Below, piece by piece: positions 27,899 through 56,556 of a stretch of DNA of 64,000 nt. The first letter of the stretch is position 1. Every line of letters begins with the position of its first letter. Below the pieces are notes generated by a model, which did not search any database, had not been told where the DNA came from, and worked only from the letters and a program-made list of their open reading frames with translations. The position numbers and the translations under genes are program-made. The DNA is from Octopus vulgaris. Taxonomy: Eukaryota. Location: the NCBI GenBank assembly GCA_951406725.2, contig OX597825.1:14446001-14510000 (forward strand), read 5' to 3'.

Positions 27899-28094
27899 CT
27901 ATATATAATATATATATATATATATATGTATGTATATATGTATAGTAGAATGACAAAATGACAAAAATGTTCTTGGTACTATATATTATATTTGAAAAAA
28001 TGAGTAGAGATGATGGCTTTTGGGTGGGACAATTCTTATTTTAATGATAATGTTTACAGTTGCTGTAATGAGTTTCGAGCTACATCAGGTGAGG

Positions 28095-28600
28095 GGCTAT
28101 GGACAGTTATCTCGAGAACCAAATGGACAGTCGGATCCTGAGGGAACCGAATTGTATTGACAGCCCAGAGTGGCCTTCGCACGTGGCTGCTCTGGTGCTG
28201 GAAAGAAGACATTGCAATATGATAATTGACTCGTGTAAAAACGAGAATTTCAGAATTCTACATTGGAGTCCCAGAATTCGGTTGCAGTAATGCTTGAAAG
28301 TTGCACGTGATTTGCTGGGGGAAAGAATTGTAGAGTTTTATTGCCTCTTATTTCTGAATAAACTAATTTTGGTTGTATGGACATTTTAGTCCAAAGAAAT
28401 TGTATTTTTGAATAGTAAGAGGGTCATTACCTCGGTGTATGTATTTTTAATAATGTTTTAGAGAAGCAGAGGATTGGCGGGCGCCTTCTGCGTTCTCCCA
28501 TCTTTATCATTTTTCATCATAATCATCCGTCTCATTAATGTTTATGTCCAGCCTGCAAGCTACTCTTTGTAATGTCTTTATGGCAAATCTTTATGAAGTA
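28095..28600 (+). mobile_element. 5'-truncated SINE-A-targeting retroelement, copy 1
   Basis: ORF 28099-28290 (..CIDSPEWPSHVAALV..SCKNENFRIL); 3' end GTCCAGCCTGCAAGCTAC..TTTATGGCAAA..TGAAGTA joined to AAGTAGCTTGCTTACC. Confidence 0.75.
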
Positions 28601-28616
28601 AAGTAGCTTGCTTACC

Positions 28617-30228
28617 TTACTCGACAGAAGAGTTCGCATTTGCATGCTACTTGGATATCACGTCTTTCAACGTGCAATATTGAACGTTTAAAGCTCGACT
28701 ACAGGTAGGCGTTTGTTTTATTTTTGGGGGCCCTAGTGGAATTTTTGTTGTTCTGTTATTAATAATTTTTGTTGAGCAACAGTATCCAATCTGCTCCAGA
28801 CATTTCCCTGCCTGTGGTCGTGCGAAAAATCTCACTTTGCACTGAGAATTGTGTTTTTGAGGAGGCGTATCCCCTCCGTGAAAAATTGCTGGCTGTGAAA
28901 ATTGCCTTTACCATTTGAGGATTTCCAGTTTGGAACTAGTTTGGATTAAGAAAAAACTTCGGCGTCAAGGTAAGTGGGTTTTTTGCTGCTGAGCTGGGTA
29001 GAATTCTTGTGTGTTTTATTTTTATTACAGTATATTCTGTCAAACTCTGGGGCAATTTCACTTATCCTTGGCGATGTTGTGATTGTGCTTTTTAACAAGG
29101 AGGTGAAGAACTTCAATGTGAATATTTTCACTACAGTTATTTAGAAAAAAAAAAATTGGTGCTTGCAAACTGTGCGTGGTCTTGAACCTGGAAACGTTGG
29201 AAGTACATTACCAGAAGGATTATTAAGAGATTTGAAGGCTGTAAGTGTGCTGGGAGTACCGTGTAGCTCGAAAATTTTATTTTCTGCCGTGGAGAATTGT
29301 ACAAATTTATTTATTTTTCTGAACAATTTTAGTTGGAATAGAATTTTTTTTTCTGAACAATTTTAGTTGAACTTTTTATTTTTTGTGTGTTCAAAGACTT
29401 TTTGTTGTTTTTTGTTGAGTGACTTTTTTCCTTGTTTGAACTGTGTTTTATCGACATGGCAGATAAAATGATAAAAAATAAGACCACTGCTTTGGAGTGG
29501 GAGATTGTCCCACCCAAGCAGTGGTTAAAAGATATGGAGGAGAGGACGGTGATGGTTAGAAGAAAAAAGAGGAAGAAGAAAAACGGGAGACGGTCAGTAG
29601 ATGTCGCTGTGCCGCCGGCCGAAACCGATGTTTCTCCGGCTGGAAGTGTGCCACCGGAGCAAGAAGCTCTGTCAGTGGGAATTGTGCCACTGACGGAGCA
29701 GGATGTGACCTCTCTCTGTGAGGAACGTTGTCATTATTTATCTCAAAGGAGGGCCTGTGGAGTTATACTTGGACAGTCTACTAAACCGAAACGATATAAC
29801 TCGACCTGTATAGACTGTCCAAGTTGGCCTCCGCAGGTGGTTGCGGAAGTCATAAATCAGAAAGTACTAATTGAGGTCAGGAAGACCTGTAACAAAGAAG
29901 ATTTTGTTTCCCTCTGTCCGGGCCTGCCGATGCATCTTCCCTGCTGGCGGCAGAAAACTTCCTTGGGGGCCCCGATGAGGAAGACGAAGAATAATGAAAA
30001 AAATATTTTTGTATTTTGTAATTTTAATTTTTGAATGTTTTGTGATTATAATTTCGATTTATATTGATTTAAATTGAACAGTGATTTCGAGGGGTTATCG
30101 GACGGCGGGCGCCGGTGCCCCTCCCATTTTTTTTTTCCATCTTTATCGTTCTCATACACATTGATGTCTCGTCCAACCCGCAGCTACCTTTATCTGTGTG
30201 CGACCTTCATGGTCAATTCGATGAAATA
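28617..30228 (+). mobile_element. 1.6-kb SINE-A-targeting RT-less retroelement, copy 2, with 16-bp TSD
   Basis: Flanked by AAGTAGCTTGCTTACC (28601-28616) and AAGTACCTTCCTTACC (30229-30244); long 5' UTR, one ORF, T-rich 3' UTR ending TGAAATA. Confidence 0.85.
29456..30034 (+). CDS. 192-aa ORF of the element (ORF1/HAL1-like, function unknown)
   Basis: ATG at 29456; basic cluster RRKKRKKK, P/E-rich linker, C-terminal CIDCPSWPPQVVAEV..TCNKEDFVSL homologous to the 28099 ORF; no RT or EN motifs. Confidence 0.6.
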   Translation: MADKMIKNKTTALEWEIVPPKQWLKDMEERTVMVRRKKRKKKNGRRSVDVAVPPAETDVSPAGSVPPEQEALSVGIVPLTEQDVTSLCEERCHYLSQRRACGVILGQSTKPKRYNSTCIDCPSWPPQVVAEVINQKVLIEVRKTCNKEDFVSLCPGLPMHLPCWRQKTSLGAPMRKTKNNEKNIFVFCNFNF

Positions 30229-30607
30229 AAGTACCTTCCTTACCAACCACATAGTTCCGGGTCGAGTCCCATTGCGTGGCACCTTGGGCAAGTGTCTTCT
30301 ACTATGGCCTCCTCATGCCGACCAAAGCCCTGTGAGTGGATTTGGTAGACGGAAACTGAAAGAAGCCCGTCGTATATATATGTATAAGTGTATATATGTG
30401 TGTGTTTGTATTTGTCCTCCCAACATCGCTTGACAACCGATGCTGGTGTGTTTACGTCCACATAACTTAGCGGTTCGGCAAAATATACCGATAGAATAAG
30501 TACTAGGCATCTAAAGATTAAGTCCTGGGGTCGATTTGCTCCACTAAAGGCGGTGCTCCAGCATGGCCGCAGCCAAATGACTGTAACAGGTAAAAGAGTA
30601 AAAGAGT
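30229..30607 (+). mobile_element. SINE-A lacking its A box (target of the upstream insertions)
   Basis: Starts at AAGTACCTTCCTTACCAACCAC; full body and GTAAAAGAG tail. Confidence 0.9.
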
Positions 30608-31929: not shown

Positions 31930-32560
31930 CTTATTGGTTTTTTTTTTCAATTTTCAGCTCAGAGCTATAGTGATGCTGGGGCACAACCGTTTTGCTATAC
32001 TGTTATGATTGGGAACCTCCTCTCATATGAGGCATTTGGTAAATAAGGGAGTTTGATGTCGTTGAACTCATTTGCGACTCCTGCCACAAGGTAGGTTCAT
32101 AACGGACTCTCGACAGGTAGAGATCCAAGTTGGATTTGAAAATATCTACATCTACTTCATGTGGGTCCCTCAGGCTCTTTGGGAGAATATTAAACATCTG
32201 TGGGCCCCCGAAATCCAGGCTGTTGTAGCAACTGTTCCTGAAGTGGGATGGCATTGCTGGGATCTTTGGTTCTATGCAGTGGTGACACGTTCTGGCATTT
32301 GTATAGCTTTCAATGACAAAATTTGGCACAATCACTTCCAGGATCTTCCAGATGTATATTACTGCATATCTTTCCCGCCTTCGGTCCACGGAACAGAGTC
32401 TTAGCTGCTTTAGCATTTCCCAGTAGATGAGCCGTTGCAATGAGACGGGCTTTTTTGTGAGGCTTCACTGAATTGCTTCCAGGTCCGCTGTTAATTTTTT
32501 CACTGTGAGGAAACCATAGCTAGGAGCAGTACAGCTGGTGGCTGAGGAGGAATGACCGGT
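31930..32560 (-). mobile_element. CR1-clade LINE 3' fragment (ORF2 C-terminus and 3' UTR)
   Basis: YCS*LWFP..DLEAIQ..YWEMLKQLRLCSVDRRRERYAVIYIWKILE..GPQMFNILPKSLR..FKSNLDLYL. Confidence 0.9.
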
Positions 32561-39214: not shown

Positions 39215-39770
39215 GGCGGTAAGCTGGCAGAAACGTAAGCACGCCGGGCGAAATGCGTTGCCGTATTTCGTCTGCCGTTACGATCTGAGTTCAAACTCCG
39301 CTGAGGTCGCCTTTGTCTGTCATCCTTTCGGGGTCGATAAATTAAGTACCAGTTACGCACTGGGGTCGATATAATCGACTTAATCCGTTTGTCTGTCCTT
39401 GTTTGTCCCTTCTATGTTTAGCCCCCTGTGTATAGTAAAGAAATAGGTATTTCGTCAGCCGTTACGATCTGAGTTCAAACTCCGCTGAGGTCGCCTTTGT
39501 CTGTCATCCTTTCGGGGTCGATAAATTAAGTACCAGTTACGCACTGGGGTCGATATAATCGACTTAATCCATTTGTCTGTCCGTGTTTGTCTTCTCTGTG
39601 TTTAGCACTTTGTGGGCAGTAAAGAAATGGGCAAGATGGCAGTCGTTAACACGCCGGGTGAAATGCGTAACGGCATCTCTTCTGTTTGTATATCCTGAGT
39701 TCAAATTCTACCTAGGTCGACTTTGCCTTTCATCCACTCGAAGTCGATAAAATCAGTACCACTTGAACAC
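39215..39770 (+). mobile_element. SINE-B tandem dimer plus a third partial unit
   Basis: Units joined at GAAATAG|GTATTTCGTC (39446/39447); both units share private variants. Confidence 0.9.
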
Positions 39771-44139: not shown

Positions 44140-44426
44140 CCAAATCGACTCTGGATTTATTCTATCGGTATGTTACTTATTCTATCGGTCTGTTACTTAT
44201 TCTATCGGTCTGTTTTGCCAAACCTCTAAATTACAGGGACGAAAACATACCAACACAGACACACAAACACACATATATGTAAATACGACGGGATTCTTTC
44301 GGTTTCCATCAACCAAATCCACTCACAAGGTTTTGGTCAGATCGAGGCTGTAGTAGAAGACACTTGCCCAAGGTGCCACGCAGTGGAACTGAACCCGCAA
44401 CCATGTGGTTAAGAAGCAAGCTACTT
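44140..44426 (-). mobile_element. SINE-A lacking its A box (second targeted locus)
   Basis: Minus starts AAGTAGCTTGCTTCTTAACCACATGG; internal ~20-bp unit TACTTATTCTATCGGTCTGT triplicated. Confidence 0.88.
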
Positions 44427-44620
44427 TATTTCAAAATTTTGCCATAAAGGCATGGCACAGAATAGCTTGCAGGCTGGACAAAAACATTGAAGAGATGAAT
44501 GACGAAAAGGATGATAATGATGGGAGAAGACAAAAAACGCCGACTTTTTTGCTTCTCTAAAACATAATTTTTTTTTACATAATAAAAACAATACATAATA
44601 AAATACATAATAAAAACAAT
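44427..44620 (-). mobile_element. 3' fragment of the SINE-A-targeting retroelement, copy 3
   Basis: TTCTCCCATCATTATCATCC..GTCCAGCCTGCAAGCTATTC..TTTATGGCAAAATTTTGAAATA joined to AAGTAGCTTGC; matches 28490-28600. Confidence 0.85.
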
Positions 44621-44792
44621 AGGCGCAGGAGTGGCTGTGTGGTAAGTAATTTGCTTACAAACCACATGGTTCCGGGTTCAGTCCCACTGCGTTGCACCTT
44701 GGGCAGGTGTCTTCTACTATAGCCTTGGGCCAACCAAACCCTTTTGAATGGATTTGGTAGACGGAAACTGAAAGAAGCCCGTCGTATATATG

Positions 44793-44823
<31 letters not shown>

Positions 44824-45043
44824 ATATGTTTGTGTGTCTGCGTTTGTCCCCCCCCCCAAATCGCTTGACAAACGATGCTTGTGTGTTTGCGTCCCCGTCA
44901 CATAGCGGTTCGGCAAAAGAGACCGATAGAATATGTACTGGGCTTACAAAGAATAAGTCCCGGGGTCGAGTTGCTCGACTAAAGGCGGTGCTCCAGCATG
45001 GCCGAAGTTAAATGACTGAAACAAGTAAAAGAGTAAAAGAGTA
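44621..45043 (+). mobile_element. SINE-A full length
   Basis: AGGCGCAGGAGTGGCTGTGTGG to (GTAAAAGA)n. Confidence 0.92.
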
Positions 45044-45989
45044 ATACGATGTATTAAACCTCTTAATTAGTTCCGTTGTTCATTCTCAGTTGAGGCTCTG
45101 AGCCTCTTACAAACAATAAACACAAAACAACAAAAGAGACTGAGGCATTAAACCTCTTACTTTAATGTGATATACAATACGAAGCACTAAGCCACTTAAT
45201 TTTTCCGCCCCGCCGTCACCCGACCAGGCTGAATGGCACAGTCAAGTACCTCGATTGTGCTAGGTCGGGACCTTTCGGCAAAAAGCGAAATGTGTCCTCA
45301 GGGAAGAACTTTATTACCTCAAACTTTTTTTCCCTACATGACCTCTACACCTACCTGCGGAGGCCAATCAGGGTTCTTGATACAGGTACTTATTCCTTCC
45401 TTTTTTATTAAACTTTATAATCATTTTTTAGATTTCCCTTCCCCTGTGGCACAGGACTACAAATTCCTCCTCCACATAGGAAGAGTCCTCAAAACCCCAC
45501 ACCGGTGGCACAATCCCCACTTACCATACAAACACTCCTGTGCCTATATATATACCGCATTATTTTATTCAAGTATTCTACCGTTGGATGCTGACTTTGG
45601 CTCAGTCTATCGCCATCTCTCTCTTCTTCTAAATGCTAATGCATCCATTAGTGTTATAAAACTTATAATGGTTACAACGACTGATATTCATGGTGATGGA
45701 TATCAAGATCTAAAGTCACAGCGGCGTACAGTATCCTGATATAATTTTCTCTGATACAATACTGATATGCCGCGTACGTTATCGGTCTAATATCACATTA
45801 GTTCATTATAATCGCTTCTTGTATCACCTACGCCAAGTATTTTAGTTCGCTGAATCACTGTCAACATTTATTTTGTAAAAGTTTAATAGACAAACATTCG
45901 AATAACGGAATTGAGTGATCCTTCAGTTCAATATTAAATGCCTTTTATGTATTAGTTAACATCAAAACAAGCATTACTACACACACACT

Positions 45990-46458: not shown

Positions 46459-47200
46459 TACGGTTATCACTCGCCATATCGCGATTCACCTATCGCGCCG
46501 CCCTAAGTACATCGCAGATATTTTCTGGCTAATATAAATTTATATCGCGGATACCTCAGCATAACACGGGTTTCTGCGGCCGATAGATATTTATATTTCT
46601 TTAGATTTTAATTATTTCTGTGGTAAAATAAGCATTTTCAAGCCTAAAAATTAATAAATTAATAAATAGAAATGCAGTGCAGTATTGCATCGTATAATAT
46701 ATTAATTAAAATATAGGCGCAGGAGTGGCTGTGTGGTAAGTAGCTTGTTTACAAACCACATGGTTCCGGGTTCAGTCCCACTGCGTGGCACCTTGGGCAA
46801 GTGGCTTCTACTATAGTCTCGGGCCGACCAAAGCCTTGTGAATGGATTTGGTAGACGGAAACTGAAAGAAGCCCGTCGTATATATGTATATATATATATG
46901 CGTGTGTGTGTTTGTGCGTCTGTGTTTGACAACCGATGCTGGTGTGTTTATGTCCCCGTTACTTAGCGGTTCGGCAAAAGAGACCGATAGAATAAGTACT
47001 GGGCTTACAAAAGAATAAGTCCCTGGTCAAGTTGCTCGATTAAAGGCGGTGCTCCAGCATGGCCGCAGTCAAATGACTGAAACAAATAAAAGAGTAAAAG
47101 AGTATATTAAAGGCAAATACGTAGTGTACCGGGAGTTATAAATGCAGAACACCACACAGTGGTGTTCTGTATTTATAATAAATGAACATTACTCGCTCCG
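46459..47200. mobile_element. Tigger/pogo-like DNA transposon remnant, interrupted by SINE-A
   Basis: TA-CGGTTATCACTCGCCATATCGCGATTCACCTATCGCG terminus; hairpin TTATAAATGCAGAACACCAC-ACA-GTGGTGTTCTGTATTTATAA near 47136-47178. Confidence 0.5.
46716..47103 (+). mobile_element. SINE-A full length
   Basis: As the 44621 copy. Confidence 0.92.
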
Positions 47201-49039: not shown

Positions 49040-50005
49040 CCGGCCGCCTCGGACACTCGGGATTTCGTCTGCCGTTACGTTCTGAGTTCAAATTCCTCCG
49101 AGGTTGACTTTGCCTTTCATCTTTTCTAGGTCCATTAAATAAGTACCAGTTACGCACTGGGGAAGATGTAATCGACTTCATCCCTTTGTCTGTCTTTATT
49201 TGTCCCCTCTATGTTTATCCCCCCCTCCCTGTGGACAATAAAGAAATATAAAATCTTCTACTCTGCTGATTTGCCATCATATTATCCCATCCTTCCAGTT
49301 TGTCGATTTCTCGTTATCATTTTGTTCAAGTGGTTCCAATACGTCCTCCAATAATTCGATCTTCTCACTTCGACCATCATTCCACGTCTTCAATTTAATT
49401 TTCTCTCAAACCATCACTTCACCTTTTACTGTCATATCTTAACACTGTCTCTGTTTCCCTATTTTCCTGCACTTGAATTAACATGAGCTTCAACGTGGTC
49501 TCTACTAGACTTTCTATTTCCTGTGTAATTTCTTCTAATTCTAACTTCCATGGTTAACCGTCTTGATATACAGAATGTGTCTGGCCAGGAAGTATACGTT
49601 GTGTTATTGGAAATGTGTCTATCACTTTCTAAATTGCGAAGATTCTTCGCCAGTTCATTCTTTTAATTGGTTAACTCCTAAAGAAGAACCTCATAAATAG
49701 ATTCTTTGGTTACTTTGTTCCTGGTAGTTTTAACTCGTTTCTCTTATCTTTCTACTTCAATTCAATTCGGTGAGCTGGCAGAATCGTTATCACGCCGGGC
49801 GACATGCTTAGCGGCATCGCGTCTGCCGTTACGTTCTGAGTTCAAATTCCCCCGAGGTCGACATTGCCTTTCATCTTTTTTGCTCATTTTTGCTAGCTGA
49901 GTGGACTGGAGCAACGTAAAAATGAAGTGTTTTGCTCAGGAATCGAAACCGCAACCTTACGATTATGAGTTCAACGCCCTAATCCCTAAGCCACTTGCCT
50001 CCACG
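49040..50005. mobile_element. SINE-B copies (49040-49250 and 49768-49880, plus) and a SINE-D fragment (49880-50005, minus)
   Basis: Family-diagnostic motifs. Confidence 0.75.
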
Positions 50006-55442: not shown

Positions 55443-55847
55443 GACGGCGAGCTGGCAGAATCGTTAGCAAAATGCTTAGCGGTATTTCGTCTGCCGCTAC
55501 GTTCTGGGTTCAAATTCCGCCGAGGTCGACTTTGCATTTCATCCCTTCGGGGTCGATTAAATAAGTAGCAGTTACGCACTGGGGTCGATATAATCGACTT
55601 AATCCGTCTGTTTGTCCTTGTTTGTCTTCTCTATGTTTAGCCCCTTGTGGGTAGTAAAGAGATAGGTATTTCGTCTATCTTTACGTTGTGAGTTCAAATT
55701 CTGCCGAGGTCGACTTTGCCTTTCATCCTTTCGGGGTCGATTAAATAAGTACCAGTTACGCACTGGGGACGATATAATCGACTTAATCCGTTTGTTTGTT
55801 CTTGTTTGTCCTCTCTATGTTTAGCCCCTTGTGGGTAGTAAAGAAAT
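55443..55847 (+). mobile_element. SINE-B dimer with 12-bp TSD
   Basis: Junction GAGATAG|GTATTTCGTC at 55665; TSD AG(G/T)TATTTGAAA at 55431 and 55848. Confidence 0.9.
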
Positions 55848-56556
55848 AGTTATTTGAAATGATTGGATGGTCATACGAGAATGGATTCGATAGTAAGTGA
55901 CCTCCATCACAAACGACCATGGGCTAAACAAAAAGAATGATTTTAGCAGCTGCTGTAGTATTCTCTAAAGTAGCCATCTTTATAGATGTCTGGAAGATTA
56001 TTAGCATTTACTTCAGCAGCCTTGATATAATACAAATGTATCGTTAAAATACATAATACCCATAGACAAAACGGAGAAAGAGTCAAGAAAATTATATCGA
56101 ACTTCTGATATGGAAATAAATCTCTGATTCCTCCGTGGAAAGTATATCTGAGGAATTAGAAATAAATACCAATTTTATTTTCAATTCCTTCCAATTAGTT
56201 ATTAATCCACGCATCATTGCTCTATTAGTAGAACGAACTGGAATCATCTCGTGTTACACTCCCGGAATAATAGGTTTCTGAATGCATGATATTCATTTAT
56301 TCATTAGAAGATGAAAGAAAAGATTAGAACGTACCTAATGTGAATTGGATGGGTGTTAAAAAAGTTCTGCATTATCTTCTTCATTGCTTTCGTTAATACT
56401 TAGTCTTGGGAGGCACAGTTCTGCGAGACACACAGAAAAGAATACTATGCTTTAGACTAATTTAAGAGAGCTGCTCGGAGACTTACATTGTTTTCCGATA
56501 TGTCCATCATCAATTAATGTTCTTGATCCGAGTGGCGAATTAGGGCCTGACATCTA

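Follow-up and report, generated by a model that had tools for sequence, protein, structure and literature searches.

Decayed non-LTR retrotransposons that encode ORF1 and no ORF2 occupy one recurrent position in the head of a SINE, GGT|AAGT (the bar marks the join), in the window, that is, the 64,000-nucleotide stretch of Octopus vulgaris DNA analysed here. The probable account of these copies, set out as a five-step model, is that an autonomous LINE of 5.44 kb copied them into this site in trans. An RNA polymerase II transcript would start ~9-10 bases into the duplicated target and pass through the poly(A)-less tail into the downstream target, and ORF1p would package its own RNA in cis. The ORF2p would then nick RY|AAG, and the read-through bases would pair with the nicked strand, priming reverse transcription. 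An internal antisense motif in the tail would form a stem with the read-through sequence and would hence have to track the target. Finally, the cDNA end would anneal to the 15-nt overhang via the target-like 5' end of the element, which would regenerate the site on the head side and let stacks grow head-ward.

Window copies and the SINE target

Three element 3' ends lie in the window, at 28600 (+), 30228 (+) and 44427 (-), and are mutually homologous over ~150 bp. After each of them comes the SINE sequence that is normally next to GTGTGGT. The initial annotation had reported these three ends, at two loci, as joined to a single SINE position, and a search of the 2.8-Gb genome bears this out with 700 exact 23-nt tail-target junctions (control, 0). 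The first end belongs to a 5'-truncated copy of ORF1-only family A (28079..28600, +), which comprises the end of ORF1 and the 3' UTR, is 79-86% identical to family A loci over 522 bp and contains an ORF1 remnant detected by tblastn at 28162-28314. A SINE head was looked for upstream of this copy and is absent. Its tail holds a 10-nt antisense copy of the target (28555..28564, +; 0/2000 shuffles reach 10 nt), which pairs with the read-through target in a fold (z -3.85).

The second copy belongs to family B (28617..30228, +), spans 1,612 bp with both termini present and carries a private internal deletion of ~740 bp. It is bracketed by the regenerated target that forms its 5' duplication (28601..28616, +; the same junction occurs in relatives) and by the 3' target copy (30229..30244, +), and the 14/16 agreement described for this 16-bp duplication was confirmed. 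The duplication is probably part target and part element, with the distal part of 28601..28616 templated by the element, because 5' joins follow the element distally in young families. The 192-aa ORF noted in this copy is present (29456..30034, +) and lacks RT and endonuclease, with no Pfam match above cut-off. It is an in-frame fusion of the first ~35 ORF1 codons with a C-terminal part, from which the RNA-binding region and the zinc knuckle have been lost. The deletion junction is AGAA (29558..29561, +), a microhomology read from relatives L033 and L034. All ten of the 15 tested relatives that align on both sides of it have 498-744 extra bases there, and no fetched locus besides the window's own place contains it. 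Because the deletion is private to the window copy, and in frame, the 192-aa ORF is ruled out as the protein of the family, whose ORF is about 420 aa long. The family B tail has a weaker antisense-to-target motif (30180..30189, +), with a longest exact run of 6 nt that 68/2000 shuffles reach. The host SINE body that follows (30229..30607, +) is 81-84% identical to intact window SINE copies, is missing the head with its A-box-like motif, and contains near 30259-30269 what we take to be a B-box-like motif.

At the second locus, on the minus strand, a SINE head ending at the insertion site is kept (45547-45523; feature 45523..45547, -). It is joined through AAGT only, a duplication of just 4 nt, to the third element (44427..45518, -), which is 5'-truncated to an ORF1 C-terminal remnant and the tail and is interrupted by another SINE (about 44620-45043, +). 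The host SINE body begins at the target (44236..44426, -). Other features of the window were recorded in passing. At 28967-29031 (+), a pyrimidine tract and an acceptor-like TTACAG come after a splice-donor-like GGTAAG, yet genomic copies retain the stretch; GGTAAG occurs in four of four unrelated 5' UTRs (window copy, L114, L184 and L203). A 153-aa frame at 32003-32464 (-) resembles the C terminus of a different LINE's ORF2, presumably of CR1/L2 type. A further interspersed repeat family lies at 18862-18967, 20286-20362, 39370-39627, 49169-49246 and 55589-55855, with 82-91% identity to the L069 flank.

Genome-wide, the same base is used repeatedly, and the strength of the preference differs among families. 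For family A, 26 of 30 loci fetched from 40 matches are on target. The family B 3' end gave 40 matches, of which 17, as scored by script, have the SINE attached at that same base; among the other 23, three represent one segmental duplication and one lies at a second AAGT in the SINE. When all 25 exact terminus copies of family B were sampled regardless of flank, 10/25 were on target and 15/25 off. The claim of site specificity thus stands for the position used, but only in part for the window's own family B. A degenerate tail pattern returned 1,255 matches (control, 13), and 61 of 70 loci fetched from the first 71 listed were on target by strict match. The remaining nine comprise four degenerate or shifted main sites, one mirror site, one second SINE AAGT, two non-SINE sites and one chance match. 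Measured against the threshold for target preference in PMC4494074 (over 20% of flanks within a single repeat), the 5.44-kb LINE (29/29), family A (26/30) and family B (10/25) all prefer this site.

Exact 33-nt empty sites number 27,671 and 26,278 for two SINE variants (53,949 in all). Set against the 700 junctions, and with pattern lengths that differ (23 and 33 nt), roughly one or two sites per hundred are occupied, so the SINE population as a whole is probably little affected. Just before the join in GGT|AAGT, the SINE head has what we take to be an A-box-like motif, seen by eye. A SINE split at this point may lose Pol III function and, as the initial annotation proposed, the SINE might act as a safe haven. 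The window SINE copy has no Rfam tRNA match and no match to 30 tRNAs examined (isotypes incomplete), and the site is present in 0/30 real tRNA genes examined, which cover few isotypes; the suggested check on tRNA genes as targets was therefore negative within that sample. SINEs do not nest in themselves at this site: 0/198 SINE 3' ends run into duplicated target, the one match being a tandem head, and 1/87 heads without a following body has a second head next. Homology between the SINE tail and LINE tails was rejected as not significant, with 84-237/500 shuffles scoring equally across the five tails compared. The target is nearly palindromic (e.g. window 46736-46754), and insertion occasionally takes place at its mirror image on the opposite strand (L350). 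Inverted head or tail pieces occur at some junctions (L256, L258, L282/L367), as twin priming would give.

The probable LINE partner and its ORF1-only passengers

A full-length APE-RT element with the same tail and flank, which the initial annotation had proposed to look for, exists. The starting query came from L034, where a family B element is preceded by the end of a LINE ORF2 that shares the terminus and the target. Among 30 loci retrieved, 29 have the tail joined to the target and the 30th lacks the tail, placing 29/29 tails on target. Nineteen of 20 fully fetched copies span from the SINE head to the SINE body or a further element and are mostly 5.44 kb long. ORF2 has 1133 aa with Pfam matches to Exo_endo_phos (8.7e-12), RVT_1 (1e-27) and zf-RVT (1.6e-9), and ORF1 has a zf-CCHC domain. 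ORF2 is nearer to L1 (L1 ORF2p, E 5.5e-67 over residues 6-870) than to R2 (E about 1e-19). The closest named relative of the RT region is from Argonauta hians (64%), and no named Tx1 protein is among the 120 listed relatives. By its sequence the 5.44-kb element is a young APE-type LINE of the L1 group, and its probable placement in the Tx1 clade rests on structure and behaviour. The nearest RT relatives without cephalopod names (P0003-P0084) are about 45-53% identical, and some of their clusters have hundreds of members.

The LINE insertions are independent, because the copies are 99% alike whereas their host SINEs are 90-96% alike. Among 18 copies, the elements agree at 99.4% and the host SINE bodies at 89.8%. 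Ten LINE-occupied SINEs of one subfamily are 96.4% alike, compared with 96.3% for 25 intact members and 99.2% for the LINE elements within them. Reading frames are open in 6/20 copies for ORF2, 2/20 for ORF1 and 0/20 for both. This lack of a copy with both frames open, together with the off-target majority of family B, counts against the proposed model.

A search with the N-terminal part of passenger ORF1 scored 150 of 10,167 candidates, and 30 loci were examined. A sense ORF2 within the 1.5-kb flanks is absent in 30/30. The tail-target junction lies 1.2-1.5 kb beyond the ORF1 start in 22/30, and a SINE head precedes ORF1 in 23/30. From head to tail these ORF1-only elements measure 2.0-2.25 kb without ORF2, and young copies of 2.23-2.25 kb have open frames of 414-426 aa. 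The full passenger ORF1 has a CCHC knuckle with a Pfam score below cut-off, and its ESM Atlas neighbours are CCHC/RNA-binding proteins. The proposal of a HAL1-like, ORF1-only family is accordingly upheld: ORF1p alone lies between intact termini and is homologous to a LINE ORF1. Codon substitutions establish purifying selection on it, with between-family N-terminal dN/dS of 0.06-0.26 (dS mostly saturated); dN/dS is higher in the C-terminal part, where the alignment is partly spoiled by frameshifts. Such long-term selection on ORF1 in elements lacking ORF2 supports a cis requirement for ORF1p. Passenger ORF1 is just 30% identical to that of the LINE (E 3e-20), which speaks against the mechanism as drawn to the extent that some families may have a partner other than the young LINE sampled here.

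Several unrelated 5' UTRs occur among the passengers. A rebuilt Pol III promoter in them was considered and ruled out, since four 5' UTRs have no B-box-like motif within their initial 200 nt, and T4 runs occur early in them. No listed data set that contains these sequences is identified as RNA. A 2,083-nt contig from a run presumed to be RNA spans the greater part of a young passenger, with ends and read-through that are not readable from the contig. Runs labelled as three other organisms contain the passenger family, and no listed contig bridges the tail-target junction by 31 letters on each side. On the minus strand of L048, a LINE ORF2 breaks off inside the RT and continues, with nothing in between, into an ORF1-only element's 5' UTR. 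A 1.5-kb element at L194 (minus strand, 292-1813) and L268 has a LINE-type ORF1 (39%) and another tail without the motif, which suggests that ORF1-only passengers probably arose a second time, independently.

Duplications, stacks and the tail motif

Where insertions fall outside the main site, the geometry of the cut can be read directly. At 15 of 27 such loci the 5' break shows a 13-17-bp TSD that begins at AAG or close to it; the base before it is a pyrimidine in 15/15, and position -2 is a purine in 13/15. These TSD lengths and flanking bases place the cut at RY|AAG and the duplication at the junction, rather than outside the SINE as the initial annotation's alternative would have had it. 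In SINEs, the head stands directly upstream of truncated copies at many truncation points (L016, L032, L043, L044, L046 and L055), and the third window copy is likewise truncated with the head directly upstream. Wherever the distal half of the 5' duplication distinguishes target from element, the element's version is found at the junction in 4/4 cases of one passenger subfamily. In a second subfamily, the 5' junction carries a family-specific one-base deletion and 4/4 follow the element, as do 5/5 LINE 5' joins, one of these partly. A locus-specific base in the proximal half of the duplication is present on both sides at L188. These joins fit an RNA that starts inside the duplication and a cDNA that anneals to the overhang, much as proposed for R2 in the accessible text of PMC6895275.

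On contig C10 (G000:C10:101.17-101.19 Mb), one SINE holds nine elements across about 17 kb, and on contig C1 (G000:C1:223.69-223.71 Mb) seven tails, likewise within a single SINE, are spaced 2 kb apart. The 3' junction of an element presents A at -1, a base seen there in 0/15 off-target sites, while the head side retains GT|AAG. In the C10 stack, a one-base duplication variant marks six consecutive head-side junctions and 0/3 body-side ones, and in L123 and L197 the body-side element is the more decayed. Stacks therefore likely grow head-ward, and unequal crossing-over may add to the arrays. The 1.6-kb window copy had been described as stacked behind an older copy; this order is probably reversed, with the upstream copy as the later arrival. 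Having lost its head, the locus itself cannot decide, and the stacked copies, about 90% and 92% identical to their nearest relatives, give no age order by divergence.

The tails carry sequence antisense to the target. The exact run is 10 nt in family A and 9 nt in the LINE (0/2000 shuffles each), and 6-7 nt in three other tails, where 68-240/2000 shuffles (3-12%) reach that length. Folds of tail plus target are significant in 2/5 cases, no better than shuffles in 2/5 and marginal in one (13/200). One motif base covaries with target position +4: with A or T in the motif, +4 is T or A at 106:3 versus 2:11, a table of 122 related rows among 165 junctions, 43 having been left out because the base was missing, truncated, or G/C. 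The pattern holds by lineage, with 31:0 versus 0:3 for the LINE and 75:3 versus 2:8 for passengers. The passenger tail tree needs 6 changes, of which strong branches force 2. In a prospective test, T-motif tails were sought without flanks; 50 of 169 matches were examined, of which 41 were new. Among the new tails, 31/41 lie at the SINE site, with +4 being A in 27, T in 2, G in 1 and C in 1, and 6/10 at non-SINE sites have A at +4. Intact SINE heads have T 68, A 33, G 8 and C 1 at +4 (n=110); since off-target sites follow the motif too, SINE availability alone is insufficient to explain the covariation.

The tail motif likely helps to aim or prime the element at its landing site. A stem with read-through RNA, pairing between motif and target DNA, and linked inheritance with different endonucleases would each produce this covariation, and the sequences cannot separate the three. 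The elements can do without the motif: the covarying base is missing from ten copies of one family that are nevertheless on target, a further tail type that is also on target has no motif, and 3-12% of shuffles match the exact run in three of the five tails. In a few cases, the end point of a very short insert or of an internal deletion coincides with the border of the antisense motif (L378, L352, L269/L341 and L166), as if reverse transcription stalled or switched there.

It is doubtful, on this evidence, that LINE and passengers choose their site partly by pairing of a 3'-UTR motif with DNA, re-aimed by single compensatory changes as SINE subfamilies shifted. The related proposal that the motif is a guide, pairing with the displaced top strand of the target and helping to choose the site or set the second nick, we judge unlikely. 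It would accommodate the tracking of +4 in both LINE and passengers (31:0 versus 0:3 and 75:3 versus 2:8), yet the same covariation is predicted by read-through priming or by a different partner endonuclease. Off-target T-motif sites have A at +4 in 6/10 cases and family B off-target sites mostly start with AAGT, but in one T-motif family, three off-target insertions begin at AAGT or AAAGT. The longest matches (9-10 nt) belong to families on target in 29/29 and 26/30 cases and the weak-match family B to 10/25; against this, young families with short exact matches are on target in all sampled copies, and families without the base or the motif are on target as well. A guide would also agree with the different motif positions in LINE and passenger tails and with breaks at the motif in 3/4 of the shortest head-to-tail inserts.

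Specificity encoded purely in protein, with AAGT- or AAGA-preferring endonucleases and the motif as a functionless hitch-hiker from fold-back or template switching in founders, is improbable. Inverted target pieces at junctions (L256, L258 and L282) and the near-palindromic target with its occasionally used mirror site (L350) would suit such an origin of the motif, and the accessible text of PMC4494074 ascribes target choice in the Tx1 clade mainly to the endonuclease. However, the motif keeps a fixed place across families with saturated synonymous sites, its matching state is found in both the LINE and the passenger lineages, and single copies at mismatched targets do not update it (L039, L241, L348, L064 and L145). 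A single element-SINE chimera copied as a unit is the least credible explanation and is refuted by host-SINE divergence and junction TSDs: although 10/18 young LINE copies lie in SINEs with shared subfamily-diagnostic bases, that subfamily has 27,671 exact empty sites and its occupied members are as diverged as its empty ones, truncated copies of many lengths adjoin the head, and non-SINE sites have TSDs of their own. Mobilisation in trans with read-through priming remains the preferred reading.

Relation to known site-specific elements

Tx1 families in DNA transposons, LTR elements and small-RNA genes, as well as ORF1-only HAL1 elements, are already known, and the comparisons below draw on the accessible portions of the cited papers. 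The open literature, as distinct from subscription journals, Repbase, Dfam and supplements, yielded no account of a Tx1-type LINE aimed at a SINE head, of its ORF1-only passengers or of an antisense-to-target tail motif in the portions consulted, which also included PMC3747384, PMC4824008 and PMC8967140. Thirteen recently active L1-Tx1 families have been counted in O. vulgaris, in a paper whose accessible part does not contain the word "target" (PMC13282606). With the present elements, a SINE head joins the sequences known to be targeted by site-specific LINEs, and a three-tier parasitism emerges, made up of a SINE, a LINE aimed at the SINE, and several protein-coding passengers of the LINE. 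One-base covariation between tail and target, in combination with young, near-intact copies, makes the respective shares of RNA-DNA pairing and endonuclease in site choice testable, and the share of pairing bears on the use of site-specific LINEs as gene-insertion tools. If true, the guide proposal would describe an RNA-assisted, retargetable LINE following a moving SINE target.

The closest parallels are Tx1L, which sits in Tx1D in Xenopus, and the crocodilian families Tx1-Mar in Mariner-N4_AMi, Tx1-8_Crp and Tx1-4_AMi in LTR elements, and Tx1-9_AMi in Harbinger (PMC4494074). Like the octopus LINE, these are APE-RT elements that prefer one position inside another transposable element, with target-sharing non-autonomous passengers (SINEU there) and tandem stacking. 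In contrast, their targets are DNA transposons or LTR elements rather than a SINE head, the octopus passengers encode ORF1p, and the octopus tails have an antisense-to-target motif, none having been seen in the accessible text of PMC4494074. Insertion in or beside multicopy small-RNA-type sequences is shared with Keno in U2 snRNA, Mutsu in 5S rRNA, Dewa in the tRNA-Leu spacer, and the Dada DNA transposons at the tRNA A box, which use part of the Pol III A box (PMC3706591, PMC8869645). Unlike these, the octopus elements insert into a repeat that is itself mobile, that offers tens of thousands of exact sites and whose subfamilies shift.

The mammalian HAL1 (half-L1) elements are non-autonomous, encode ORF1p only, have both UTRs and multiple origins, and exchange 5' UTRs in an L1-like manner (PMC5753468). 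The octopus passengers have the same properties, including 5' UTR exchange and, probably, more than one origin. They differ in deriving from a site-specific L1/Tx1-type LINE, in lacking a poly(A) tail, in the CCHC knuckle of their ORF1 and in their fixed target. The closest named protein to passenger ORF1 is from Octopus sinensis (64%), and the nearest relatives of both passenger ORF1 and partner ORF2 are cephalopod proteins, as opposed to the mammalian L1 from which HAL1 stems. The octopus passengers work like HAL1 and are not members of it. In the rDNA elements R2 and R1, target sequence at the RNA 5' end lets the cDNA anneal upstream for full-length insertion, and target sequence carried by the RNA is important for making the first strand in R1Bm and other elements (PMC6895275). 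The octopus elements would likewise have target sequence at the RNA 5' end for upstream cDNA annealing. By comparison, R2 has a different endonuclease class and both R2 and R1 use rDNA, whereas in the octopus the 5' homology lies within the duplication and is accompanied by an antisense motif in the tail.
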